Shown here piece by piece: positions 6,843-63,711 of a stretch of 64,000 nucleotides of DNA; position 1 is the stretch's first letter, and each line of letters opens with the position of its first letter. The notes below the pieces were generated by a model that had not been told where the DNA came from, made no database searches, and saw nothing but the letters and a program-made list of their open reading frames with translations. Source of the DNA: Abditibacteriota bacterium (GTDB lineage Bacteria; Armatimonadota; UBA5829); the NCBI GenBank assembly GCA_942493375.1, contig OW818698.1, positions 6,255,465-6,319,464 on the forward strand. The letters are read 5' to 3'. The translations under genes were made by a program, and so were the position numbers.

Positions 6843-7052
6843 CACAACATAGGTGTAAAAGACTGAGTTTCTTTTGAACTCGGACAAGAGGTTGGGTAAA
6901 TGAAGCAAAGGGTATAGTAAAGAAGAATTGGCAGGCGTATTAAAAGTGCTCAGATTGTGCATTGTCTGAAAATGTAGTGGCTATTAATCATTCATACACT
7001 GCTTTATGAAGGAACTGCCTGTCAACGATTGTTGTTTGGAGTTATCGGAGTT

Positions 7053-7922
7053 ATGGTGTATCCTGAAAATAAAATCATTGCATTTGCCAAATCAACGTTG
7101 ATTTTGATCTGTGTTGTAGCTGCTATATTAGGAGCAGTTCATGTTATATTTCTGTTGACAAAACTGACAAGGCAGCTTGGCCAGATGACTGTCAAACTTG
7201 ATAAACTGGATACAATGACATCAGAGATCAATCGTCTGAATTCACGGTTGAATATGCTTGAAGAGACAAATAACAAGCTTTACCGCATGGAGAATTATAT
7301 GCGCTTTTTGCCGGTTTTAGCTGATGTTGGGAAAGTAGCAGTAGCGGAATCTTCAAGTGCAAATCGGAAGCTCGATATTACAAACGAAAGATTAGCAAAA
7401 ACGAACTCATTCATGCTTGATTCTACAAAAAAACTTAATGCTACTAACTATAATTTGCAGTTCACTAATGGCAATTTAAGGGGAATGCGAACCAACCTCT
7501 CCCATATGGGGGACTCGATGGACTTAATGGCTGCACAGCTTCCAGTGTTAAATGATATGAATCAACAACTCGCTCAGACCAATTTCAACCTTGGTAAGAC
7601 TACTGCAAGTATCGAACAGGTCACACGTGGGGTCGACAAGGTCAGTAGTGGGCTTGATGTAATGCAAATACAGCTAAAAGATATGGACACCAACTTCACG
7701 GTTCTTCCTGAGATGAAATTGAGTTTGGACAAGACTAATGAGATGTTAACAGCCACTACTCTAACCCTTCAGCCACTATGTCTGAGTCTGCCTGCATTAA
7801 ATGCATCAGTTCAACAGATGAATCTTACAACCCAGGATATGTCGAAAAGCTTGAAGAAACTTCCAAATCAGGGTGCGGTGGGTCTAGGAGTGCTGACAAG
7901 TGCGATACTTTTTAGAAAATAG
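7053..7922 (+). CDS. Membrane-anchored coiled-coil protein with Asn/Thr-rich heptad-like repeats (hypothetical)
   Basis: A single N-terminal TM helix (ILICVVAAILGAVHVIFLL) is followed by about 230 aa of TNxxLxx-type repeats. No recognisable catalytic motif. Confidence 0.45.
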   Translation: MVYPENKIIAFAKSTLILICVVAAILGAVHVIFLLTKLTRQLGQMTVKLDKLDTMTSEINRLNSRLNMLEETNNKLYRMENYMRFLPVLADVGKVAVAESSSANRKLDITNERLAKTNSFMLDSTKKLNATNYNLQFTNGNLRGMRTNLSHMGDSMDLMAAQLPVLNDMNQQLAQTNFNLGKTTASIEQVTRGVDKVSSGLDVMQIQLKDMDTNFTVLPEMKLSLDKTNEMLTATTLTLQPLCLSLPALNASVQQMNLTTQDMSKSLKKLPNQGAVGLGVLTSAILFRK

Positions 7923-8067
7923 CTGCCAGGTAGTCCCTGCTGCCGCACAATAGCGAAGCTTAGTGCATAAAACGGATTGGCTTTAAGTACATTTTAAAAT
8001 GATCAGCATGTATGGAATGGTATACTATATATACTCGTGAGATACCTTACTGTTTGATTGCATACTA

Positions 8068-8172
8068 ACCCGTTTTATTCACCAAGCTTCGCTTTTGTCC
8101 GGCAGTTGGGACAAAAGCTGAGAGTGTAAATGCATAGCATTTACACCGTCAGTCATGAATAATGCGGGCTAA
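8068..8172 (-). repeat. MITE/REP-like nested palindromic element, family 1 copy (reverse orientation, with an internal palindromic insertion)
   Basis: Outer arms CCCGTTTTATTCACCAAGC ... GTCATGAATAATGCGGGC match the arms of the copies at 28637, 31215 and 63631. The inner palindrome is CTTTTGTCC/GGACAAAAG. Confidence 0.6.
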
Positions 8173-8397: not shown

Positions 8398-8455
8398 TCT
8401 AGCCCGTATTATTCACCAAGCAACGCTTTAGTTCCTCAGGATGGCAATGTTCACA
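8398..8455. repeat. Partial family-1 MITE arm fused to a family-2-like motif (cctcaggatgg)
   Basis: ctagcccgtattattcaccaagcaacgcttt followed by agttcctcaggatggca. Confidence 0.4.
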
Positions 8456-8949
8456 TGAAACTGAACTCATACCATATACCGCATCAATCTTAGTGATGAT
8501 TATTATTCTATATAAGTAGAAATGCGTGTAAACACGATGAGATTGAAGCACATATACATTAGCTTCCGAGGAAATGCATTTATACAACCTGTTATAATGC
8601 GCGAGCTGCAGAATAAGTGCGGGCATAACAAGCGTCGTCGCACAAAACATCCTGCATCAACTGCAACAATTGAACAATCAGTAAAAACAGTGTAAGTAAA
8701 GAGGTGTATCTGCATATATACTGGTAATGATGTCATATGTGTGCCGCGTAATCACACAAAACATCACCATATCCATCCTAAGTAAACGATGATTTTGCAA
8801 AGTAGGTAATACTACTTATAATGCTTTTTCGTGCTAATGCCTAAAATCAGTTATGTATAACACTCTATTTTCCGATATATAAAATAGCTATCCGCAAATA
8901 GAGAAAAATGGAACGAATAACAAAATATAAAAGACCAGAAGGTGGAAGC

Positions 8950-11900
8950 ATGCGAATAAACTCTATCAAACTACTGCCGAGAGTGCTCGGTGCATTTGTG
9001 ATCGTGGCTTTGATTGCCATTACGATCGGAATGGTAGGCCTGAAGACAGTTACAGAGATCGGTGGGCAACGCCTTCCGAGTATAGTTGCATTGCAGGACA
9101 TGACTCTTGCCCAGCAGAAAGTGTGGGTAGCAGAGCGTGGACTTATCAACCCGAGGATGATGGATCCCAAAGTACGTGCTGCCCAATACAAATATATTGA
9201 AGGTGCTTGGACGCTTGCTGATGATGCGGTCAAGGTATATGAGCCATCTGCTAAATCTAAAGAAGAAGAAGCAATTTGGAAAGAGCTCAAGCCGCAGTGG
9301 GATGAATGGAGAAAGTCACATGAGGCTGTCGTCCAGTTGGCCCGGCAGAAAGATGAGTTACTTGCTTCTGGAGCAACCACACAGAGTCCGAAGATACTTG
9401 CACTTGACCTCGAGACATTTAATGCATCTATGGAGGCAAGAGGCAAGGCATTATCTTCTATTGATTGTATAAACAAGATTCTCGTAATTAACAAAAAAGT
9501 AGCTTCGGCTTCTGCATTAACTGGCCGACGCAATATGATTACCGCAATGGCAGCCGGTATGCTCCTTGCCTTAGCTTTTGGAGTTATAATCGCCCTCAGC
9601 GTCTCCAAGCCGGTTGTAGGTATCAAAAATGTTGCTGATCAACTTGCTCTCGGAGAAGTAGACGTAAACCTGACTGTTAGCGGTAAAGATGAGATAGCGG
9701 ACCTCACGCGAGCTATGGAACAGATGGTTGCTGGGATAAAAGTTACCGTTGCAGCAGCCGGACAGATATCCAAAGGCGATATGTCTACTTATGTTGAACC
9801 CAGGTCTGACAAGGATGTATTAGCCATCGCAATGAACGGTGTCGTAGAGTCTGTGCGTGGACTGGTGGATGAGGCCGGAATGCTGAGTAAAGCAGCAGTA
9901 GACGGACGCCTGGACACCAGAGGAGAGGCTGATAAGTTTGAGGGTGGATTCCGCGAGATCATCGTCGGAGTCAATGACACACTCGATGCTGTCATTGGAC
10001 CACTCAATGTCGCTGCAGAGTACGTTGAGCGTATATCCAATGGCGACATCCCTGCCAGAATCACCGATAGTTACAACGGTGACTTCAATGAGATAAAGAA
10101 TAACCTGAATAAATGTATTGATGCCGTAAATGCAATGACTGCTGACGCTAACATGCTGAGCGTAGCAGCAGTAGAGGGTAAACTGGATACCCGTGCAGAC
10201 GCAACAAAGCATCAGGGTGACTTCAGAAAAATAATCTCCGGAGTCAATGACACTCTTGATTCAGTCATAGGACCATTAAATGTTGCTGCCGAATATATGG
10301 AGCGCATTGCCAATGGAGACATTCCTGCAAAGATCACCGATGAATACAATGGTGACTTCAACGAGATCAAGAATAACCTGAACAAGTGTATTGATCAGAT
10401 CAGTATGCTGGTTGACGAAGTTGGTGTAGTCATTGGTGCAGCCAAAGATGGCAAACTGTCTATGAGATCAGATACCGAAAGAGTTCAGGGTGTATACCGC
10501 AAACTTCTGCGTGGACTCAACGAGACCCTGGATTCAGTAGTCGGACCATTGAATGTAGCTGCAGAGCACATTGAACGCATCTCAAATGGAGATATCCCCT
10601 CACCGATCACCGATGTATACAATGGTGATTTCAACGAGATCAAGAACAGCCTGAATAAGTGCATAGGCGCAGTCAACCTGCTGGTTGCTGATGCTGGTAT
10701 GCTGAGTGAAGCTGCCATAGAGGGCAAACTCGATACCCGAGCTGATGCATCTAAGCACGGTGGTGATTTCCGTAAGGTTGTTACTGGAGTCAATGGAACC
10801 CTTGATGCAGTAATTGGACCACTCAATGTTGCTGCTGAGTATGTTGAGCGAATTTCCAATGGAGACATCCCTGGGAAAATCACCGATAGTTACAATGGTG
10901 ATTTCAACGAGATCAAGAACAACCTGAACAAGTGTATAGAATCGGTTAATGCGATGGCAGCCGATGCTGTAATGCTCAGCGAAGCCGCTGTAGAGGGAAA
11001 ACTGGCCACCAGAGCTGATGCATCAAAGCACCAGGGTGATTTCCGTAAAATCATTCAGGGAGTTAACGATACACTTGATTCAGTTGTTGGTCCTTTGAAT
11101 GTAGCAGCAGATTATGTTGACAGAATATCCAATGGGAATATACCTTCCAGTATAACCGACAACTATAATGGTGACTTCAACACCCTGAAGAATAACTTGA
11201 ACAAATGTATTGCAGCAGTTAATGCGATGGTTGCAGATGCTGGTATGTTGAGTATAGCTGCCGTAGAAGGTAAATTGGATACAAGAGCTGATGCAAGTAA
11301 ACATCAGGGAGACTTCAAAGCGATTGTTGAAGGAGTCAATCAGACTCTGGATTCGATAGTTGGGAACCTGGAAGCAATACCGACTCCGATCCAGTTTATG
11401 GACAAGGATTACAATATCCAGTATATCAACAAGACAGGAGCAGCTCTACTCGGTAAGAGTAAAACTGAACTCACTAAATACAAGTGTGCGGATGTCTGGA
11501 ATACATCAAAGTGCCGAACAAAAGACTGTCCATGTTCGAAAGCGATGGAGCTTAACAGCAGTTACGAATGTGACAATGATACAATGGTTGGCGACAAGCG
11601 ATTTGACATACATTGTGCAGCTGCTCCTCTTAAGGATAAAGCTGGTAACACAGTTGGGTCATTCGAGTTCGTAATTGATCAGTCGGATATAGTCAATGCC
11701 GGCAGAGTAATGCAGAAGATCGGCCAGTATCAGGACTTGGAAGTGGAGAAACTCAATTCTGCGTTGGCACAATTTGCACAAAATGATTTGACAGTAAGTG
11801 TTGAAACAGGGACTGCAGATGCTGATACAGCGGAGACTAAAGGAAAATTCGACAAGATAGCCGATGCTTTCAATGATTGTGTAACAGCGATGGGCAGTGT

Positions 11901-13059
11901 TATTGGCCAGGTAGCCGAGGCTGCAAACAAAGTAGCTGATTCTACATTAGCCCTTTCTAAAACTGCAACTGATGTTGGGAATTCCTCTCAGCAGATATCT
12001 TTGACCGTAGACCAGGTAGCTACAGGCTCCCAGGAACAGTCAAGAACCGTGCAGAACAGTGCCGAAGCTATGGAACAGCTGATGAGAGCTATCGGTGAAG
12101 TTGCTGCTGGTGCTCAGAGTCAGGCTAAACAGGTAGATCAGACTGTTGGACTTGTCCAGCAGATCACTGCCGCCATTGATGAAGTTGCCAAGAATAGCAG
12201 CACTGTTGCTCAGGCCAGCCGAGAAGTCAACGAAGTCGCCATCAAGGGCGGATTGCAGGTAGCCAAGTCTGGTGAAGGCATGGTCCGCATCAAAGATGCT
12301 ACAGATAAAGTCGGAACAATGGTCAAGCAGCTGGGTGATAGCAGCAAACAGATAGGGGCCATCGTCGAGACTATCGATGATATCGCTGAGCAGACAAACC
12401 TGTTGGCTCTAAACGCTGCAATCGAAGCAGCCAGGGCAGGGGAGCATGGTAAAGGATTCGCAGTAGTTGCAGATGAAGTCCGCAAGCTTGCCGAAAGGTC
12501 CAGTAAGGCCACTGGTGAGATCGCAGACCTGATTGGGACTATGCAGAATATGATCAACTCAGCTGTCGATGCGATGAGCATCGGGAGTAAAGAGGTCAGT
12601 GAGGGCACAGTGCTCTCAGCTGAAGCAGGGGATGCTCTGAAGAATATCCAGGGAGCCGTTCAGGGAATCGTATCTCAGATAGACAATATGGCTGCTGCTG
12701 CTCAGCAGATGTCTGCATCGAGCACGGAAGTCGTAAGAGCCATAGAGAACGTATCTGCAGTAACCGAAGAGACTACCGCAGCTGCCGAAGAGATGGCTGC
12801 ATCGAGTGCTGAGGTCTCCCGTCAGATAGAGCAGGTTGCTGCAGTCAGCGAAGAGAACGCTGCTGCTGCTGAGGAAGTCAGTGCCACAACCCAGGAGCAG
12901 ACCGCTGCTGCTGAGGAAATGACCGCAGGCACAGAAGACCTGTCCAACATGGCTGAAGACCTGCAGGAACTGGTCTCTGCATTCAAGACCAACACAGTTG
13001 GGAACACCCTGCAGAGCATGACAAAACAATCAACCAACAAACGCCGCAGAGCGGCATAA
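8950..13059 (+). CDS. Methyl-accepting chemotaxis protein with 2 TM helices, a periplasmic sensor domain, a poly-HAMP array (~12 HAMP units), a Cys-rich PAS domain, a further HAMP domain and an MCP signalling domain
   Basis: TM1 at ~res 20-45 and TM2 at ~200-225, then a canonical HAMP. Six tandem 91-aa (273-nt) repeats each contain two helix-connector-helix HAMP-like units ([41 protein letters not shown]). The PAS domain carries C-x7-C-x4-C-x-C. The MCP core is [38 protein letters not shown] take the start as the Met at 8950 (GAAGGTGGAAGCATG RBS); the ORF is open from 8908. Confidence 0.85.
9840..11390 (+). repeat. Intragenic tandem repeat, 273-bp period x ~5.7 copies (encodes the poly-HAMP array)
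   Basis: ggtgacttcaa[ct]gagat[ac]aagaa[tc]aacctgaa[tc]aa[ag]tg recurs at 10078, 10351, 10624, 10894 and 11170. Confidence 0.85.
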
Positions 13060-13912: not shown

Positions 13913-14005
13913 CCGTTCGTCCTGAGCGCAGTCGAAGGGCAGCAATCCCAGCCAGCAGTAATCCTGTAAATCCCATAATCCTATTAATCTTCTTCAGACA
14001 ATACC
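13913..14005 (+). repeat. ~95-bp direct repeat copy 1 (immediately upstream of the beta-helix gene)
   Basis: ccgttcgtcctgagcgcagtcgaagggcagca...aatcctgtaaatcccataatcctattaatctt. Two 32-bp blocks are identical to the copy at 15781. Confidence 0.8.
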
Positions 14006-14018
14006 CGAAGGATTACTG

Positions 14019-15716
14019 ATGTCCAATGTAAAACACTATCTCATGAAAACACTCGTTTTGCTTATCTATATATTCCTGTCTACTGCTGCTCAAGGTGCGG
14101 TTCCGGTGACCAAACCTGATGAGCATATACCTCTTCGTACTCTCCACGTTAGTCAGCTTCCTCTGAAAGGAATTGAACTGCAGTTCAGGTCTATTTCGGA
14201 AGCTGCAAAGGTAGTTAAGCCGGGAGACCTTGTTCTGATACACGGTGGAGTTTACCGGGAAGGGGTTGTAATAGAACGCAGCGGAGATATAAAGCAACCG
14301 ATTATATTCCAGGCAGCCGATCTTGAGCATGTTGTTGTAACAGGAGCTGACCGCGTTGTGGACTGGACCCCTGTCCCCGGTAAGTCAGATGTATTCTGCA
14401 CTCCCTGGACGCTGAAATTTATTGGTTGGAACCCTGACTTCTCTCACGGCGCTCCTCCTCCGATAGGCCGGGCTGAGCAGGTGATGGTGGAAGGATATCT
14501 GATGCACCAGGTCCTCTCCCTTGATACCCTCAGTTATGGATCATTTTATGTGGACACATCGGATAAGAAACTCTATCTCCAGATGCCAAGTCCGGGTTAT
14601 GATGTTTCGAAAACCAGGATCGATATCTCCAGCCGCGAGAATATATGGGATGTGCGAGGCAGTTTCGTGCACACCCGGGGGATAACATTCAAGTATGCAG
14701 CCAATAAGGCTCAAAGCGGAATGGTGACCATCGGTGGAGACAGTAGTGTCCTCGAAGACTGTGTGTTGGAGCGGTCAAATGGGGTGGGGCTGACACTTGT
14801 CGGTAAGAATACTGTAATCAAAGACTGCGAAATCCGGGAGAATGGGCAGATGGGTCTGGGTGGTAGTGGAACCAATCTGCTGATAACCGGATGCCTGGTC
14901 ACTAATAACAACACCAAGAACTATCCCCGTGGTTGGGAAGCAGGTGGCTGTAAAATAAGCATGTCCAAAAATGTTGTATTCGACAAGTGCAGGTTTATTG
15001 ACAACCGCGGGGTAGGGATATGGTTCGATATAGGCAATGAGGCCTGTGTCGTCCGCAACTGCCTGATCGCCGACAATGAGTTCTCCGGTATCTTCTACGA
15101 AATATCCTACGGTCTGCACGCACACGATAACGTCATTATACGCAATGGATTTGAGGATGCGTATGGCAGTTGGGGATCTGTTGCCGGGATATCTCTCTCC
15201 AGTTCACCGGACTGCGTTATAGAGCGAAATATTCTGGCAGGCAATGCCGAAGGTTTCAGCTACCGTGAACAGCACCGGACCACCCCGCGCATAGGCAGAT
15301 CCGGACCGGAGGAAAAAGTCTGGGTCAACAATGAGATCGTGCGTAACAACATTATCGCTTACAACGGTGTGCAGACATGGGGATGGTTCGATTCAGCCGA
15401 TGGCAGGCAGTGGCCGCGTGCATGGGGCAAGAGTAAAGAGATGTCACTTGAGGATCTCCACCTGAACATGCGTGACAATGTCTTCAGCATATCAGCAGGC
15501 CAGGAACTCTTCAACTGGTCCCCAAAATGGGCAGACGCCAAACACTACACAGATCTATCCTCAGTAAGAAAAGACTTGAACCTGGAGCAGGGGAGCGTCC
15601 TTGAACAAGTGAATTTCAAAGACCCATTCAAAATGGATTTCCGCCTGACCAAACCAACCCCCAATCAACTAAAATCCTACCCCAGAGGAACCATACCAGG
15701 AGTAAAAACCAACTAG
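14019..15716 (+). CDS. Secreted right-handed parallel beta-helix protein (pectate-lyase-fold; possible polysaccharide lyase/hydrolase or adhesin)
   Basis: Signal peptide MKTLVLLIYIFLSTAAQGA. There are multiple beta-helix coil repeats (NGVGLTLVGKNTVIKDCEIRENGQMGLGG..., NNTKNYPRGWEAGGCKISMSKNVVFDKCRFIDNRGVGIWFD). AAGGA RBS. Confidence 0.55.
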   Translation: MSNVKHYLMKTLVLLIYIFLSTAAQGAVPVTKPDEHIPLRTLHVSQLPLKGIELQFRSISEAAKVVKPGDLVLIHGGVYREGVVIERSGDIKQPIIFQAADLEHVVVTGADRVVDWTPVPGKSDVFCTPWTLKFIGWNPDFSHGAPPPIGRAEQVMVEGYLMHQVLSLDTLSYGSFYVDTSDKKLYLQMPSPGYDVSKTRIDISSRENIWDVRGSFVHTRGITFKYAANKAQSGMVTIGGDSSVLEDCVLERSNGVGLTLVGKNTVIKDCEIRENGQMGLGGSGTNLLITGCLVTNNNTKNYPRGWEAGGCKISMSKNVVFDKCRFIDNRGVGIWFDIGNEACVVRNCLIADNEFSGIFYEISYGLHAHDNVIIRNGFEDAYGSWGSVAGISLSSSPDCVIERNILAGNAEGFSYREQHRTTPRIGRSGPEEKVWVNNEIVRNNIIAYNGVQTWGWFDSADGRQWPRAWGKSKEMSLEDLHLNMRDNVFSISAGQELFNWSPKWADAKHYTDLSSVRKDLNLEQGSVLEQVNFKDPFKMDFRLTKPTPNQLKSYPRGTIPGVKTN

Positions 15717-15780: not shown

Positions 15781-15873
15781 CCGTTCGTCCTGAGCGCAGT
15801 CGAAGGGCAGCAGCACCTGGTCACAATAATCCTGTAAATCCCATAATCCTATTAATCTTGTTCAGACAACACC
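15781..15873 (+). repeat. ~95-bp direct repeat copy 2 (immediately downstream of the beta-helix gene)
   Basis: Same two 32-bp blocks as the copy at 13913, with a 15-bp variable spacer between them. Confidence 0.8.
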
Positions 15874-19199: not shown

Positions 19200-19362
19200 G
19201 GAGCTGCGGAGAAACCTTGTCATTCTTAACGCTAACTTTGTCATTCTGAACGCAGTGAAGAATCTGCTGTTCCGGATACCTCACATACCCATAACAGCAG
19301 ATTCTTCGTTCCTCAGAATGACACTGGGGACGGCAGGCTGGAAGCCTGCACCACAATTCAGC
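19200..19362. repeat. Family-2 palindromic repeat (GTCATTCTGA...CAGCAGATTCTTCGTTCCTCAGAATGACA plus GGACGGCAGGCTGGAAGCCTGCACCACAAT module)
   Basis: Long imperfect inverted repeat plus a 7-bp-stem hairpin. Related copy at 53411-53552. Confidence 0.6.
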
Positions 19363-28636: not shown

Positions 28637-28718
28637 CTAGCGCACATTACTCGTGATTGATTCACTTTCGCCCCTAATGCCGGTCGAAAGCAGAGTCTGG
28701 TGAATAATGCGCGTTAGC
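28637..28718. repeat. MITE/REP-like nested palindromic element, family 1
   Basis: CTAGCGCACATTACTCGTGATTGATTCACTTTCGCCCCTAATGCCGGTCGAAAGCAGAGTCTGGTGAATAATGCGCGTTAGC. Outer arms are CGCACATTA.TCGTG/CTGGTGAATAATGCGCG and inner arms are CTTTCG.CC/GGTCGAAAG. Confidence 0.7.
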
Positions 28719-29838: not shown

Positions 29839-31114
29839 AGACGGGTTCCCTTTCTGTTTCGGTGCTGACCAGTTCTATCTGTGCACCGAGTGCACGTAGC
29901 TTCGGTACCATGTTATCATAACCACGCCGAATGTGCTCAACACCAGTTATCTCACTCTTACCTTCAGCGGCTAATGCAGCACACACTAACGCTGCGCCTG
30001 CGCGCAAGTCGGAGGCCGTGGTCTGAGCTCCAGTTAGAGTGGGGATTCCAGCTATGATGGCATTTCTACCTTCTTGCTTGATGTTAGCGCCCATTCTCTG
30101 CAGTTCGGAGACGTATCTAAAACGTCGTTCATATACGTTTTCAGTAACGATTGATGTGCCGTCGGCTACGGTTAAAAGAGCTGCGAACGGTTGCTGCAGG
30201 TCAGTAGGAAAACCTGGGTAGGGCATTGTCATTATGTCTGTAGCGAGAGGACGTTCGTGGCATCTTACTCTCATATCATCAGCGGAGACATCAACAATAG
30301 CGCCGGCTTCTCTAAGCTTTAGGCAGAAAGATTCGACATGCTCGGGGACAATGTTTTCGATTCTTACATCGCCTCTGGTTATTGCAGCAGCGACGGCAAA
30401 TGTCCCGGCTTCCATTCGGTCAAATGGTACGGAATAATCGGTCCCACGGAGTTCTTCCACACCGCTGATGCGTATAGTGGTTGTTCCAGCTCCGGATATC
30501 CGGGCTCCCATTGTTCTGAGGAAATTAGCAAGTTCAAAAACTTCTGGTTCAGCAGCTGCATTGTGTATAGTGGTAAGTCCATCTGTAAGACATGCTATGG
30601 TCATCAAATGCTGAGTAGCGCCTGCACTGGGGAAATTGAGGTATATCTGAGTTCCTTTGAGATGGTCACACTGGGCTTCGACAAATCCGTGGTCAATGAC
30701 TACATGGGCTCCAAGGGTCTGGATTCCCTTTACATGGAAGTCAATCGGTCTAGCACCAATGTCGCATCCACCAGGCATTGCAACTTTTGCATAACCTCGT
30801 CTGGCCAGGACTGGACCCAAAACGCAAAAAGAAGCTCGCATCGTTCTTACAAGTTCATAAGAGGTTTCTGTGTGGGGGATTTCAGTGGCATCTACGCGAA
30901 GGATACCTCCGCTCTCTAGCTCACATTTTACACCAAGGCCACGCATGACCTCTATCATAGTCCTGACATCAGCGATTGCCGGAACATTACGCAGAATGGT
31001 TTCACCTTTTGCCAATAAAGCCCCAGCCATTACAGCCAGTGCCCCATTCTTGCTGCCACTAGGCTGTACGCATCCTTCTAATCTCGCGCCGCCAGTCAGT
31101 ATGAGCTTGTCCAA
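29831..31114 (-). CDS. murA: UDP-N-acetylglucosamine 1-carboxyvinyltransferase MurA (TTG start)
   Basis: LDKLILTGGARLEGCVQPSGSKNGALAV aligns with the MurA N-terminus. TTG at 31114 is preceded by GGGAGGG. The catalytic Cys is in ...RASFCVLGP.... Confidence 0.8.
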   Translation of the reverse strand: MDKLILTGGARLEGCVQPSGSKNGALAVMAGALLAKGETILRNVPAIADVRTMIEVMRGLGVKCELESGGILRVDATEIPHTETSYELVRTMRASFCVLGPVLARRGYAKVAMPGGCDIGARPIDFHVKGIQTLGAHVVIDHGFVEAQCDHLKGTQIYLNFPSAGATQHLMTIACLTDGLTTIHNAAAEPEVFELANFLRTMGARISGAGTTTIRISGVEELRGTDYSVPFDRMEAGTFAVAAAITRGDVRIENIVPEHVESFCLKLREAGAIVDVSADDMRVRCHERPLATDIMTMPYPGFPTDLQQPFAALLTVADGTSIVTENVYERRFRYVSELQRMGANIKQEGRNAIIAGIPTLTGAQTTASDLRAGAALVCAALAAEGKSEITGVEHIRRGYDNMVPKLRALGAQIELVSTETEREPVFV

Positions 31115-31214: not shown

Positions 31215-31296
31215 CTATCGCGCATTATTCGTGATCGGCCCACTTTCGACCCTACTGCCGGTCGAAAGTAGAGTTTTGTGAATAATACGCGTTAGT
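31215..31296. repeat. MITE/REP-like nested palindromic element, family 1
   Basis: CGCGCATTATTCGTGATCGGCCCACTTTCGACCCTACTGCCGGTCGAAAGTAGAGTTTTGTGAATAATACGCG. Confidence 0.7.
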
Positions 31297-31598
31297 ACAC
31301 GCTCAAAAGTATAGCCCCAAAGAGGCAAGCCTGTCAACACAACGAGGAACATTTGCCCTAATTTAGTTGTGTCTACAGAAGTATCAACGCAACGCAAATT
31401 GAAAAGTTACACTGCATTTGTACAATATCAATAGGAATGTGTGTCAATGTTGTCGGTGACCACTAGTATTCTACCAGAAAATGTTGTATTTATACGAAAA
31501 TGGGAGTGGGGGATGGTGAAATGACGGAGACAGTATAGTCCGTCCACCCTTCGATTGCGCTCAGGGTGGACGGGGTGTGTGGCTGGATTATTCGTAAT

Positions 31599-32402
31599 TT
31601 AGACTTTCAATACGCAGACAGATGCTGGAACTCTGACTCTTGGAGCTATGCTTTCAGATATCATGAATTCATATCCTGATCCAGCAGGTCCAACATATCC
31701 GGTAGCCATATCCTGGCCGACTACAATGGAAGCAAATTGTTTGCCTGATGCCAGCAATACTCCACCGCTCTTAAGTGATGGTGCCTTGATTATCTTAGAG
31801 CCGACCACACCGGAAATATGTTCCATTTCCGAAGGTCCACCCTGCGGATAGAGTCTGAACAACAGGTTGTATAGTCCAGGCGCTAATGCCAGAGTGTAAG
31901 GGCCATGGAAGCCTTTGTCATCCAGTTTGGTAACAGCTGAAATAATATCAGTGCCTGCTGCTCCAATGGCATCCCAGTTTGATAGTTTTACAGACTGAGT
32001 TCCTGAAGCAGTTAGTAGACCATCAACTCCGAGGGCTTTATTACCCTCGAATATAATGCTGTCTTCCATAGCTGCAACAGCCTGTGCTGCTCCGGCAACA
32101 GCGGACATGTCCATTGCGAATCCATTCTCTACAAAACCAGCGATATCACGAGCGGATAGTGTGAAGCCGGTGTCTATTAACGGAACCGGGACTGACTTAG
32201 ATGCAGAAAGGGTTACTGACCCATCATTTATTACCCGGTCTTCGAGCGGGATCTGTTTGAGACCCAGTCCATAAGGTCCTTCAATATCCAACACTCTTCG
32301 TCCGGTGAGTACACTCTTTGCTGCTTCTATGACAACATGGTCAAGCAGATTCCAGACGACTTCCCCAAATGGGGCATCATTTCTTCCCAAAAAATTATCC
32401 AT
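31599..32402 (-). CDS. Encapsulin nanocompartment shell protein (family 1, HK97 fold)
   Basis: 267 aa and collinear with known encapsulins: VLDIEGPYGLGLKQ (DVEGPYGW in T. maritima), GPYTLALAPGLYNLL (GPYTLVINTDRW), IVVGQDMATGYVG (LILGQDLSIGY), C-terminal ...VPASVCVLKV. Confidence 0.8.
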   Translation of the reverse strand: MDNFLGRNDAPFGEVVWNLLDHVVIEAAKSVLTGRRVLDIEGPYGLGLKQIPLEDRVINDGSVTLSASKSVPVPLIDTGFTLSARDIAGFVENGFAMDMSAVAGAAQAVAAMEDSIIFEGNKALGVDGLLTASGTQSVKLSNWDAIGAAGTDIISAVTKLDDKGFHGPYTLALAPGLYNLLFRLYPQGGPSEMEHISGVVGSKIIKAPSLKSGGVLLASGKQFASIVVGQDMATGYVGPAGSGYEFMISESIAPRVRVPASVCVLKV

Positions 32403-32490: not shown

Positions 32491-32889
32491 TTACTTGAGT
32501 GATCCGATAGTTGGGATGTGCACAGGTGCTTCATCCGCAGATTCGGCTTCTGCCTTGTCCTCAGGAGTAGGAAGGGACATGTCTCCTTGCTCTACCTCTT
32601 CAGCCATCTCACGGACTTCATCGAAACCATTTTGAAGCCACCCTTCCTCATCAGGTAGAAGGATCTTCAGTAGTTGAATAAATTCACCAACGTGGACCCT
32701 CTCCTCATTGGCAATATCCAGAAAGACTTTTTTTGCCAACGGATTGTCAGTGGCTTCGGCATGTGCTTCATAAAGTGATGCTGCATCCAGTTCGGCAGCG
32801 GTATTCATTCTGATAGCTCTTACTAATTCCGGTAGTGTCATTTTTCTACCTGGAACAATCTGCGAAAAGGGATCTGTGAAATTGGGCAT
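32491..32889 (-). CDS. Encapsulated ferritin-like cargo protein (EncFtn/Flp) with C-terminal encapsulin targeting peptide
   Basis: 132 aa from the ATG at 32889 (GGAGGCTCAGATATG RBS). Ferritin-like residues are ...AELDAASLYEAHAE...ANEERVHVGEF (E/Y, then EExxH). An acidic linker precedes a C-terminal ...VHIPTIGSLK tail, which matches the GSLxIGSLK-type targeting peptide. It lies 88 bp upstream of the shell gene. Confidence 0.75.
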   Translation of the reverse strand: MPNFTDPFSQIVPGRKMTLPELVRAIRMNTAAELDAASLYEAHAEATDNPLAKKVFLDIANEERVHVGEFIQLLKILLPDEEGWLQNGFDEVREMAEEVEQGDMSLPTPEDKAEAESADEAPVHIPTIGSLK

Positions 32890-33089
32890 ATCTGAGCCTC
32901 CGAACCTAGGAATTATATAGAGTCTGCCTGCTAGTGTAGTGGACTCCAGTTTGAAAATACCCGAATTTGAACAATGCCAAACAGAAAGGTTGAAAGATAT
33001 AGAAATATTTGTTGAGTAAGGGATGTATACTAGGGCAATCAATCAAATAGCAAAGGGTGAGTGTTTGATCGTGTGAAGATTTTGTCAGG

Positions 33090-33165
33090 TGGAGCCGACG
33101 AGGGGACTCGAACCCTTGGCCTGAGCTTTACGAAAGCCCTGCTCTACCAACTGAGCTACGTCGGC
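33090..33165 (-). tRNA. tRNA-Thr (anticodon CGU)
   Basis: Cloverleaf read as GCCGACGTAGCTCAGTTGGTAGAGCAGGGCTTTCGTAAAGCTCAGGCCAAGGGTTCGAGTCCCCTCGTCGGCTCCA. Anticodon loop TTCGTAA. Confidence 0.8.
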
Positions 33166-33172
33166 ATTCCGA

Positions 33173-33248
33173 TGGTGCCGAGAGTCAGAGTTGAACTGAC
33201 GACACGTGGATTTTCAGTCCACTGCTCTACCAACTGAGCTACCTCGGC
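33173..33248 (-). tRNA. tRNA-Phe (anticodon GAA)
   Basis: GCCGAGGTAGCTCAGTTGGTAGAGCAGTGGACTGAAAATCCACGTGTCGTCAGTTCAACTCTGACTCTCGGCACCA. Confidence 0.8.
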
Positions 33249-33303
33249 ACGCGGTCTTCAAGCCAAACCGACCCACTTTGGTGGTGGGTCGGTTCAGGAA
33301 AAT

Positions 33304-33380
33304 TGGCGGGGATGACGAGACTCGGACTCGCGGCCTCCTACGTGACAGGCAGGCGCTCTAACCAACTGAGCTACACCCCC
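33304..33380 (-). tRNA. tRNA-Asp (anticodon GUC)
   Basis: GGGGGTGTAGCTCAGTTGGTTAGAGCGCCTGCCTGTCACGTAGGAGGCCGCGAGTCCGAGTCTCGTCATCCCCGCCA. Confidence 0.75.
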
Positions 33381-33391
33381 GGGTGTGGACT

Positions 33392-33467
33392 TGGTGGGCG
33401 AAACAGGGCTCGAACCTGTGACATCTTCCTTGTAAGGGAAGCGCTCTCCCAGCTGAGCTACTCGCCC
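33392..33467 (-). tRNA. tRNA-Val (anticodon UAC)
   Basis: GGGCGAGTAGCTCAGCTGGGAGAGCGCTTCCCTTACAAGGAAGATGTCACAGGTTCGAGCCCTGTTTCGCCCACCA. Confidence 0.8.
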
Positions 33468-49761: not shown

Positions 49762-51044
49762 TTTTCTGGATATATAATCTTGCACTGCTTCTGCTCAGTC
49801 CCTTAGTCGTTCTATTTGTTCTTTATCGGATATTTGTTTCGAAGAAATCTGGTAAGGCCTGGCGTGATCAGCTGGGGCTTGTTAGTGTTCCCCGTGAGAT
49901 CGCTGAAAAGAAGCCGGTGTGGATTCATGCGGTGTCAGTAGGGGAGTCTGTTGCCAGCGCGGCTGTTGTTGCTGAGCTCAAAACCATGTCTCCTGAGACG
50001 CCTGTTGTTGTCTCTACGACTACACAGACTGGTCGTTCTCAAGCTGAAAAAAGCATCAAAAATGCTGATGCGTTTATATACTATCCTTTCGATATCCTCC
50101 CTTGCGTTGCTAATTCTATCAAGCAGGTGAACCCTTCTGTGTTTGCCAGCACTGATACCGAAATATGGCCTAATTTCCGGCATGTATTGAGATCACGAAA
50201 AGTCCGAAGCGCACTTATCAACGGGACGATATCTGATCACACATTGAATGGCGCCGCGAAATTACCGTGGCTCTACCGATGGGCGTTGGGGAATATGGAT
50301 ATGTTCTGCATGCAGAGCCAGGAGGATGCTGACAGAGTTGTCTCGATCGGCGCAGATCCTGCCAAAGTTACGGTGACCGGCAATATCAAATGGGACCAGG
50401 CTCTATCTGATCTTGATGGGTTGGATATTGAGCTACTACGGCAGAGATATAAGGTCACTGAAGGAACCCCGGTGTTTGTTGCCGGAAGCACTAATCCTGG
50501 CGAGGACGCACCTGTTCTTGATGCTTTTCTACTGGCACGGAGAGAGAACCCCAATTTACGGATAGTAATAGCTCCCAGGCAGATTGAACGCAAGGATGAA
50601 ATAGTTCAGCTTGCAAAGGAACGTGGGCTGACTTCGTCATGGCGAAGTCAACCTGATACCATCACGGGTAAAGAGGATGTTCTTGTTCTTGACACCTTTG
50701 GGGAGTTAGCGAAGATATATGCCCTGGCGCAGGTTACATTTGTTGGTGGGAGCTTGATTCCCAGGGGCTGCCACAGTATTTTACAGCCAATTACTCTGGG
50801 TAAACCGGTGTTTTTTGGTCCCCATACATTCAAAGCCCGTGACGTTACCAGTCAGGCTGAAAGAGCGGGAGTTGGATTCCGGATACATTCGGCAGATGAA
50901 TTGGGAACGCAAATCACTGCCTTGCTTTCGGATTCGGACAAGCTGATGGATATCGAGCGCAGATGCCGTGAACTTGTTGATGCAAACCATGGTGCTGCTG
51001 TAAAAACCGCTGAAACCTTGCTAACCCGCATTACTCAAGGATAA
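49758..51044 (+). CDS. waaA: 3-deoxy-D-manno-octulosonic acid (Kdo) transferase
   Basis: VWIHAVSVGESVASAAVVAELK... is the KdtA N-terminal signature; 428 aa. Confidence 0.8.
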   Translation: MIFWIYNLALLLLSPLVVLFVLYRIFVSKKSGKAWRDQLGLVSVPREIAEKKPVWIHAVSVGESVASAAVVAELKTMSPETPVVVSTTTQTGRSQAEKSIKNADAFIYYPFDILPCVANSIKQVNPSVFASTDTEIWPNFRHVLRSRKVRSALINGTISDHTLNGAAKLPWLYRWALGNMDMFCMQSQEDADRVVSIGADPAKVTVTGNIKWDQALSDLDGLDIELLRQRYKVTEGTPVFVAGSTNPGEDAPVLDAFLLARRENPNLRIVIAPRQIERKDEIVQLAKERGLTSSWRSQPDTITGKEDVLVLDTFGELAKIYALAQVTFVGGSLIPRGCHSILQPITLGKPVFFGPHTFKARDVTSQAERAGVGFRIHSADELGTQITALLSDSDKLMDIERRCRELVDANHGAAVKTAETLLTRITQG

Positions 51045-51134
51045 CTCAACTCTTATCTGAACTGCATGATAAACTGAAGCTTCGTGAATAACACAGGCTA
51101 ATAGCCTGATAATTCTGCTCTCGGAGGATCATAT

Positions 51135-53378: not shown

Positions 53379-53410
53379 GTTGGTGTTCGGCTGTCTGGGT
53401 AGGAATTTGG

Positions 53411-53552
53411 GGACGGCAGGCTGGAAGCCTGCATCACAATAGTTACTCTGCTGGTGATTGTCATCCTGAGGAATGAAGGATCTGCTTTTACGTGTGGATT
53501 ACACTGGCACAGCAGATCCTTCGTTCCTCAGGATGACAGAGGGGTCAGGATG
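53411..53552. repeat. Family-2 palindromic repeat between convergent genes
   Basis: GGGGACGGCAGGCTGGAAGCCTGCATCACAAT + GTCATCCTGAGGAATGAAGGATCTGC...GCAGATCCTTCGTTCCTCAGGATGAC. Confidence 0.6.
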
Positions 53553-62616: not shown

Positions 62617-63570
62617 TTACTTGTCTGGATATGTCTGATTCAGTATCGTTCTGAGCTTAAGAATGGAAGCATTTGAGATGGGTATATGGAAATCGAACTC
62701 CGACAAGGTGTAGTCCAGCAGTCTTGTTGCTGTATCACCAAGGAGATTGGGTGTGCTGCGACAGATATTGCCCATGTTGAGGCCTCGGTGGTTGAGTATG
62801 TATTTGGCGGCTGGCAGGTAATCACATGCGCACATTATATCGTGCATAATCTGAGCTGATTCGTATGCTTGATTCCTGAGTTCCGGATCAGAGCCGTTAC
62901 ACATTGTTACACAGTGTTCGGGACATACGTTTGCTATTATGCCACAATGGCCGGCTCCTCCTGCTTTTAGTGTCTCAGGTGTGCAGCGCAGGTTGGCTGC
63001 GAATATCTTAAGGGGTGTGTTTTCCGCGGCGTGGACTTTAGTCATGCAATTATTCAGGTCTGACGATGTCTCTTTTACAAATATGAAACGACCGGTTGGA
63101 GCTATCTGAGAGATTTCCTCGGAGGTGATTTGTATGTGTTTCGGGGAGGGGCATTCATATATTCCCAGAGGAATCTTAGTAAGTTCACTCAATTTTATTA
63201 GTTGTCCGGGAATGTCACTGGGAGACGGCAGGATCGAAAGCAGAACGACTACGGCGTCTACCCCTGTGTCATACATTGCTTTGACGCTAATGACCTGTTC
63301 ATCCAGCGATCCGCTAAAATTACCACTGGCTACGATCGGTATAGCTCCATTGGTGCGGTTGACTACCCGGTTAGCTATCAGATGTCTTTCCTCAGGGGTC
63401 AGGTGGAACATTTCACTGGAAAGACAGACGGTGAATATTGCTGATACTCCTGCATTTATGTAGAAATCAACCATTTCGTCTATAACATCATAGTTTACGG
63501 CTCCATTGACATCGAATGGGGTCAACATTACCGGAATTGCGCCGGATGGAATTTCAATAAATCTTGCCAA
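62617..63570 (-). CDS. Dihydrodipicolinate synthase/N-acetylneuraminate lyase (DapA/NAL) family class I aldolase
   Basis: IPVMLTPFDVNGAVNYDVIDEMVDFYINAGVSAIFTV... TIM-barrel. The Schiff-base Lys region is FIFVKETSSD. Confidence 0.6.
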   Translation of the reverse strand: MARFIEIPSGAIPVMLTPFDVNGAVNYDVIDEMVDFYINAGVSAIFTVCLSSEMFHLTPEERHLIANRVVNRTNGAIPIVASGNFSGSLDEQVISVKAMYDTGVDAVVVLLSILPSPSDIPGQLIKLSELTKIPLGIYECPSPKHIQITSEEISQIAPTGRFIFVKETSSDLNNCMTKVHAAENTPLKIFAANLRCTPETLKAGGAGHCGIIANVCPEHCVTMCNGSDPELRNQAYESAQIMHDIMCACDYLPAAKYILNHRGLNMGNICRSTPNLLGDTATRLLDYTLSEFDFHIPISNASILKLRTILNQTYPDK

Positions 63571-63630: not shown

Positions 63631-63711
63631 CTAGCCCGCATTATTCATGATTGACTCGCTTTCGCCCCTACTGCTGGTCGAAAGCAGTGCTTGGTGAATA
63701 AAGCGGGCTAG
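63631..63711. repeat. MITE/REP-like nested palindromic element, family 1
   Basis: CTAGCCCGCATTATTCATGATTGACTCGCTTTCGCCCCTACTGCTGGTCGAAAGCAGTGCTTGGTGAATAAAGCGGGCTAG, which has perfect 11-bp terminal inverted repeats. Confidence 0.75.

Follow-up and report, generated by a model that had tools for sequence, protein, structure and literature searches.

What kind of element is the nested palindrome of about 80 bp that recurs throughout the window, i.e., the whole 64-kb stretch of DNA analysed here? The first-pass annotation left the choice between a non-autonomous, possibly active mobile element and a REP-type repeat, with a possible role of the hairpin at the RNA level. From the comparisons reported below, the repeat is most probably, with a probability of roughly 85%, an IS1380-type MITE that a DDE transposase of the same type presumably mobilises in trans. 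This identification is drawn from sequence comparison.

Copies, anatomy and genomic context

The family comprises four full copies (A, B, C and D), one decayed copy (F) and two right-half copies (E and G). This amounts to seven copies or fragments found by nhmmer within 64 kb, which corresponds to the multiple dispersed copies typical of MITEs. Copy A is located at 28637-28717 on the plus strand (core 28641-28713, flanks CTAG at 28637-28640 and TTAG at 28714-28717, E-value of 7e-26), between mreB, whose stop lies 99 nt upstream, and a TolC-like gene, which begins 384 nt downstream. Copy B (31215-31295, plus strand, flanks CTAT and TTAG, E-value of 1.3e-25) occupies the encapsulin-murA spacer, the murA start (a TTG at 31113 on the minus strand) being 102 nt further downstream. 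The best-preserved of the window copies is copy C (63631-63711, plus strand, E-value of 1.4e-26), with a CTAG/CTAG target-site duplication (TSD) and terminal inverted repeats (TIRs) at 63635-63650 and 63692-63707; a DapA-like gene on the minus strand (62617-63570) starts 61 nt downstream of this copy. Three members share the 1-kb spacer that precedes the gene of a 1383-aa chemoreceptor. These are copy D (8065-8172, minus strand, TSD TTAG/TTAG, E-value of 5.9e-20), half copy E (8399-8441, minus strand, E-value of 4.2e-6), which lacks the left arm and consists of the right arm with its TIR and a CTAG flank, and half copy G (7931-7978, plus strand, E-value of 7.4e-6), a decayed right arm with the right TIR that begins 9 nt beyond the end of ORF 7029-7922 and is 85% complementary to copy D. 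Finally, copy F (51021-51101, plus strand, TSD CTAA/CTAA, E-value of 1.1e-4) is old and decayed but full-length. It is inserted at the kdtA stop codon, and the final 24 nt of the kdtA ORF lie within it. The nhmmer profile was built from the full copies A-D themselves, so their own E-values are expected, and E, F and G are independent matches.

An unbiased repeat search also retrieved copies A, B and C as direct 81-bp repeats of 83-84% mutual identity, together with copy D and the partial arms. All five loci of the first-pass annotation are real and homologous, their coordinates being right within 3 bp, and copies F and G are additions to its list. The outer inverted repeats and the inner stem that it had described were confirmed by alignment and by motif counts exceeding those of shuffled sequences: the end motif gave 17 matches in the window vs. 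4.0 ± 1.9 in shuffles, and the inner stem 3 matches vs. none.

The core of a full copy is 73 bp long (100 bp in copy D) and contains no ORF. It is bounded by TIRs of 16 bp (CCCGCATTATTCRTGA on the left and TGGTGAATAAWGCGGG on the right) and flanked on each side by 4 bp, whose consensus, taken position by position, is Y-T-A-R (CTAG, TTAG, CTAA or TTAA). The interior, of about 41 bp, consists of a 9-10-bp stem and an 8-nt loop, which reads CTACTGCC in most copies of the window. Two subfamilies coexist in the window. Copies A, B and C carry the inner stem CTTTCGNCC/GGTCGAAAG, copies D, E and G (subfamily 2) the inner stem CTTTTGTCC/GGACAAAAG, and the stems of both differ from each other through compensatory double changes. 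The extra length of copy D is a 27-bp hairpin at 8121-8147, a perfect palindrome with a 10-bp stem (GTGTAAATGC-ATA-GCATTTACAC) found nowhere else in the window. The palindromic insertion noticed earlier in this reverse copy is therein recognized.

MITE copies are strongly excluded from ORFs: called ORFs hold 2 of 37 copies vs. 66% of the YTAR sites in the same loci. The earlier statement that all copies are intergenic is accordingly right for most of them but not for copy F, because of its 24-nt overlap with the end of kdtA. The preference proposed for convergent or divergent gene junctions is not found, all window copies lying between co-directional genes. For the copies overall, the orientation relative to the flanking genes is sense in 12 cases, antisense in 9, convergent in 5 and divergent in 6. 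A preference for insertion at stop codons was considered as well and is not established: the TAR of the target forms a stop in 7 of 35 cases vs. an expectation of 10% based on the available YTAR sites outside ORFs (binomial p of 0.054). Insertions fall exactly at stop codons and in 5′ leaders of essential genes (kdtA and murA) without destroying them.

At the kdtA locus, the relatives L045 (3990-4025) and L046 encode a 424-aa protein whose stop is the TAA of the MITE target CTAA. In the window (50990-51044), an 8-nt deletion just upstream results in a 428-aa ORF that reads 24 nt into the decayed copy F, and KdtA thereby gains a different C-terminus. The nearest named homologues of this KdtA, at about 60% identity, come from Armatimonadota MAGs.

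Besides, several other features of the window were recorded. A second small repeat family, with the core CCGTTCGTCCTGAGCGCAGTCGAAGGG, occurs at 13913-14005, 15781-15873 and 31541-31575. Two direct copies of 93 nt, 88% identical, bracket ORF 14019-15716, and the inverted, hairpin-forming copy at 31541-31575 directly follows the encapsulin gene and is shared with the relative L024. A third family, at 19294-19357 and 53408-53544, is composed of TGTCATCCTGAGGAAYGAAGGATCTGCT and the adjacent TGGGGACGGCAGGCTGGAAGCCTGCA; its copies make up a 28-bp inverted pair, 96% complementary, at 53459-53538, and the 166-nt region around this pair has a folding energy of about -79 kcal/mol. The chemoreceptor gene, ORF 8908-13059, encodes a methyl-accepting chemotaxis/Aer2-like protein of 1383 aa and contains five in-frame tandem repeats of 273 bp (9862-11253), 66-75% identical, consistent with a repeated signalling-domain array. 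The encapsulin gene (31599-32402) encodes a family-1 shell protein (NF041155, 7e-69) and has a small upstream ORF (32491-33042), whose matching gene in L024 carries a rubrerythrin domain. Next to this region, a Val-Asp-Phe-Thr tRNA cluster extends from 33090 to 33467.

Target-site duplication and IS1380-type ends

The flanks of the element were examined in 36 distinct copies, taken from the window and from scans of metagenomes and genomes. Identical flanking 4-mers were present in 19 of the 36, vs. a mean of 6.0 in shuffles, and none of 10,000 shuffles reached 19. The suggestion that the CTAG-type flanks are target-site duplications is therefore supported. Among the identical 4-mers, 16 of 19 are non-palindromic (TTAG nine times, CTAA four times, and ATAG, TGAA and TTCA), hence they are direct repeats and no extension of the inverted repeat. 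When flanks are read in the orientation of the element, 26 are TTAG vs. 10 for its reverse complement CTAA, an excess that hints at an insertion orientation biased relative to an asymmetric target.

Relatives provided the corresponding empty sites. In the relative L024 (JGI 3300045131, 92% DNA identity), which is collinear through the encapsulin-murA spacer, the site of copy B is empty and reads GTGTA-CTAG-CGCGTCG vs. GTGTA-CTAA[copy B]ATAG-CGCGTCG in the window. Likewise, exactly 77 bp, i.e., the core plus one TSD, are missing at the position of copy A from the relative L028 (86-92% identity), leaving GGATAA-CTAA-CTCTATT between mreB and the TolC-like gene. These precise empty sites, together with the TSDs, support the earlier view of a non-autonomous mobile element of MITE type. 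The site of copy F is occupied in the relatives L045 and L046 (91% and 77% identity), where the element has decayed independently. Since A and B are absent from close relatives whereas F is common to relatives and decayed, A and B are young and F is old, and these copies can serve as dated insertion markers between close Armatimonadota-like genomes. The idea of an active or recently active element is only partly borne out: A and B are missing from relatives of about 90% identity, but any current activity is hypothetical. As to the half copies, E and G (8399-8441 and 7931-7978 of the window) and a further one at locus L037 (8082-8138) all keep the right end and lack the left. This may reflect chance, or one-ended events of the kind seen in the IS1380 family.

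The TSDs of the young copies are imperfect. Copy A has CTAG/TTAG vs. CTAA at its empty site, and copy B has CTAT/TTAG vs. CTAG. These mismatches are attributed to later substitutions, which is a weak point of the argument, and the 4-bp duplication model rests on the statistics over the 36 copies, not on copies A and B. A duplication of TA only, as in IS630/Tc1-like elements, was also weighed, since fewer changes are needed to reconcile it with the empty sites of A and B. This model predicts complementary outer positions; among the 24 copies with a central TA on both sides, the outer positions were identical in 17 and complementary in 4, and it was rejected on these statistics.

The likely parent family was indicated by the ends. 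A sensitive BLAST search of copy C against 72,556 plasmids returned three weak matches, two of which fell exactly on the termini of full-length insertion sequences (ISs). These two matches are individually weak (E-values of 0.7 and 3), and the argument for IS1380 rests on where they fall and on the flanks, not on E-values. The first IS, of 1621 bp, is carried by Bradyrhizobium septentrionale pBs5S5b (L027) and reads CTAG-CCCGTCTTATTCATGA ... TGATGAATAAGACGGG-CTAG. The second, of 1615 bp, comes from the megaplasmid of Methylorubrum extorquens AM1 (L026) and reads CTAG-CCCGTCTTATTCACGA ... TGGTGAATAAAGCGGG-CTAG. In each of them, the single ORF encodes an IS1380-family DDE transposase, with profile scores of 6e-166 and 4.5e-160 for PF13701, and of 7.5e-123 and 6.7e-120 for NF033539. 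The right end of the MITE is identical to the L026 IS end at 16 of 16 positions (21 of 21 for the right end of copy C with its flank), and the left end matches the L027 IS end at 14 of 16 positions, or 18 of 21 when extended.

Six further IS1380 members from plasmids of other taxa were compared, of which four have clearly related ends: ISPa33 and a Halomonas IS (CTAG/TTAG followed by CCCGGATTTCTCATGA), ISSp1 (TTAA followed by CCCGCCTTATTCACCA) and ISBdi2 (ending in CCGTCTTATTCGT). The founder IS1380A (CGCGGAWWTCTCACA) and a Nostoc IS (CGGATTTCTCAC) display more distant variants. Full-length ISs (L026, L027, L031, L032 and L034) are flanked by CTAG/CTAG, TTAG/CTAG or TTAA/TTAA. Since matching ends and 4-bp YTAR flanks occur together in full-length ISs, both are IS1380-type features. 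In addition, a T/G asymmetry between the two ends of the MITE (TCATGA vs. TCACCA) is conserved and mirrors the left/right-end asymmetry of full-length IS1380 elements.

MITEs are under about 300-600 bp and have no coding capacity. The window element shows every testable feature of a MITE and of an IS1380-derived MITE that was examined, i.e., a short non-coding core, TIRs, direct TSDs, dispersed copies and precise empty sites on the one hand, and TIRs homologous to those of the parent family with the same duplication length and target on the other. According to this reading, the transposase would bind both 16-bp TIRs and insert the element at a YTAR tetranucleotide, which would be duplicated on either side. 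It would presumably be supplied in trans by an IS1380 gene elsewhere in the genome. No IS1380 transposase was detected in the 64-kb window or in the fetched MITE-bearing loci by tblastn with two IS1380 transposases, and the copies could be orphans, given this absence from the loci examined.

The maintained hairpin and the competing explanations

Each of copies A-D folds at the RNA level into one long hairpin of -28 to -47.6 kcal/mol, with z-scores from -3.7 to -8 (-41.9 kcal/mol and -7.4 for copy C). In an alignment of 14 copies of the window's two subfamilies, 92% of the outer-helix cells are paired, and paired cells amount to 89% vs. 33-45% after a shift of the partners by one to three columns. 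Compensatory double changes affect seven base pairs (16 cells), and the covariation score reaches 0.160 vs. 0.113 ± 0.011 in shuffles, none of 500 attaining the observed value. The pairing of the MITE interior is maintained by compensatory changes. Such a hairpin is not required by simple TIR recognition, hence something else constrains the interior. The 8-nt loop, too, is semi-conserved (CTAsTGCC) across subfamilies whose stems differ. A MAFFT/RNAalifold consensus of all 31 cross-phylum copies was limited to the outer stem, since the interiors do not align, and for this reason covariation was counted solely within the two subfamilies of the window.

Could the hairpin then be primarily a host device, e.g., an mRNA-stabilising or attenuating structure or a protein-binding site, with the transposon-like features being secondary? 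The covarying stem pairs and the loop shared by different stems would fit such a function, as would the position of copy B. Indeed, directly upstream of this copy, a sigma70-like promoter (TTGACA-18-TATACT, 11 of 12 positions, 31337-31308 on the minus strand) is conserved in L024, where the MITE site is empty. From this consensus match, the predicted murA mRNA would begin with an 81-nt hairpin contributed by copy B. More generally, a transcript crossing a copy would carry a long stable stem-loop, formed by the noncoding interior of about 40 bp with its 8-nt loop, and neighbouring genes such as murA may be affected.

However, maintained pairing does not imply an RNA function, since the arms of inverted-repeat transposons also co-vary for DNA-level reasons; constraints on the DNA or the amplification of different master copies would be expected to leave the same pattern. 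Orientation is unbiased (12 sense vs. 9 antisense copies), and neither strand folds consistently better, which led us to reject a strand-specific RNA function. In Rfam, the whole window gave only four tRNAs at the gathering threshold and no match to the repeat. In a permissive scan of copy C (E-values up to 10), the best hits were miRNA-hairpin noise with E-values above 1, at 13-15 bits vs. gathering scores of 80-91, i.e., about 65 bits or more below them, and a known Rfam family was discarded as a candidate. Moreover, close relatives differ in whether a copy is present at essential genes, and old copies (F, E and G) decay. The stable hairpin that had been put forward stands, a strand-specific RNA role is not supported, and a primary host function appears improbable.

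Even less probable is a MITE derived from another DDE family that likewise targets YTAR with a 4-bp duplication, for instance from the IS5 group of the IS5 family. Insertion of IS5 takes place at YTAR and yields a 4-bp duplication. The families cannot be told apart by target preference alone, and YTAR is mentioned in an IS5 context in PMC5009759. What speaks against an IS5-type origin is the terminal 16 bp, which match IS1380-family ends at 14-16 of 16 positions and start with CC like most IS1380 ends examined. They are presumably unlike the IS5 end, which we take to be GGAAGGTGCGAA.

The REP/REPIN alternative, i.e., paired extragenic palindromes spread by a RAYT (an HUH tyrosine transposase) acting on single-stranded hairpins, is the least credible and fails despite real likenesses (short, mostly intergenic palindromes in nested or paired hairpins at high local density, a hairpin conserved by compensatory changes, and half copies resembling single REP arms), because the window element lacks the defining REP features and has instead the termini of DDE-type IS1380 elements, 4-bp direct target duplications and precise empty sites, features that REP/REPIN spread is not known to leave, and no RAYT (PF01797) was found among the annotated genes flanking the copies.

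Distribution and comparison with known systems

Having retained an IS1380-type MITE, we considered how far the family extends. The expectation that more copies exist outside the window was verified both in metagenome contigs and in a genome scan. A metagenome scan for the subfamily-specific motif returned 10 stretches, in which nhmmer recognized about 10 distinct full copies and a single distinct half copy; the ends are the same in all of them, and the flanks are YTAR. In one of these contigs (L035, 2416-2574), two MITEs of different subfamilies are arranged head to tail with a single TTAG in common, suggesting that one of them inserted into the target duplicated by the other. The genome scan (one genome per species, two ends required) yielded at least 23 loci, twelve of them from one unclassified MAG. 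The others among the matches listed come from MAGs labelled Betaproteobacteria/Burkholderiales, Nitrospiraceae, Mariprofundaceae, Armatimonadetes, Chthonomonadales and Thermodesulfobacteriota, together with the cyanobacterium Nodosilinea and Paratractidigestivibacter (Coriobacteriia). The loci listed have these ends and YTAR flanks in common but differ in their interiors, most of which fold as hairpins, and the cross-phylum interiors often have a CTAGTGCY-like loop. In the viral-contig scan, the subfamily motif had no match, and the TIR scan gave mostly solitary, chance-like matches and one MITE of 236 bp. The latter (L058, 801-1044, IMG/VR) is a very GC-rich, near-perfect palindrome (-175 kcal/mol) whose CCCGCATTATTCATGA ends are perfect and whose flanks are CTAG/CTAG. 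It represents a longer MITE with this type of end, from an unrelated high-GC host.

The element is an ordinary kind of selfish DNA, but the family appears to be undescribed, and its ends recur across distant phyla. IS1380 is not mentioned in two reviews of prokaryotic MITEs (PMC10969869; PMC3184786). For annotation, repeats of this kind should be labelled IS1380-type MITEs rather than REPs or candidate RNAs, and the 16-bp end motif with YTAR flanks offers a simple search key for the family in many phyla.

A bolder proposal can be formulated, which we regard as unlikely. The elements would form a cross-phylum superfamily of IS1380-type MITEs in which the interior hairpin (covarying stems and a loop close to CTAsTGCC) is itself selected, either because transposition needs it, as a DNA hairpin or as a site for the transposase or a host factor, or because it has been co-opted as an RNA element, e.g., at the 5′ end of the murA mRNA. 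In addition, scattered ends and right-half copies could be usable as surrogate ends in one-ended, gene-capturing transposition. The use of surrogate ends by IS1380-family transposases is known for ISEcp1 and ISPme1 (PMC9330008), and the mobilisation of adjacent host genes by IS1380 transposases through dispersed IS1380-type ends is a testable idea. The cross-phylum reuse of ends, the maintained hairpin and the possible use of surrogate ends are mildly interesting, and would not surprise a specialist.

Compared with the IS1380 family itself (IS1380A, ISEcp1, ISPme1, ISPa33, ISSp1 and ISBdi2; PF13701/NF033539), the MITE has the same type of TIR (CCCGnnTTnTTCA, starting with CC), an identity of 13-16 of 16 positions with individual ends, and the same 4-bp YTAR flanks. 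It differs by its core of 73 bp without a transposase gene, whereas the ISs measure about 1.6 kb, and by its interior hairpin, for which the IS1380-family ISs examined show no equivalent in their subterminal regions. A full-length IS1380 partner of the MITE was not found in the window.

Among classical bacterial MITEs, Correia and RUP duplicate TA. The Correia/NEMIS elements of Neisseria, ERIC, RUP, Nezha, Chunjie and MITEAba12 are likewise short, non-coding and multi-copy, with TIRs and TSDs, a location mostly between genes, a long stable hairpin, filled and empty sites between relatives, and truncated copies. Such general features have been reviewed (PMC3184786; PMC10969869). Chunjie was rejected as a relative on account of its 9-bp direct repeats, the TSD of that element being 9 bp long (PMC3184786). 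The family described here leaves the current understanding of MITEs unchallenged. It is distinguished from these classical MITEs by a different parent family, a 4-bp YTAR duplication, a core that is among the shortest at 73 bp, and the recurrence of the same TIRs, with different interiors, in several phyla.
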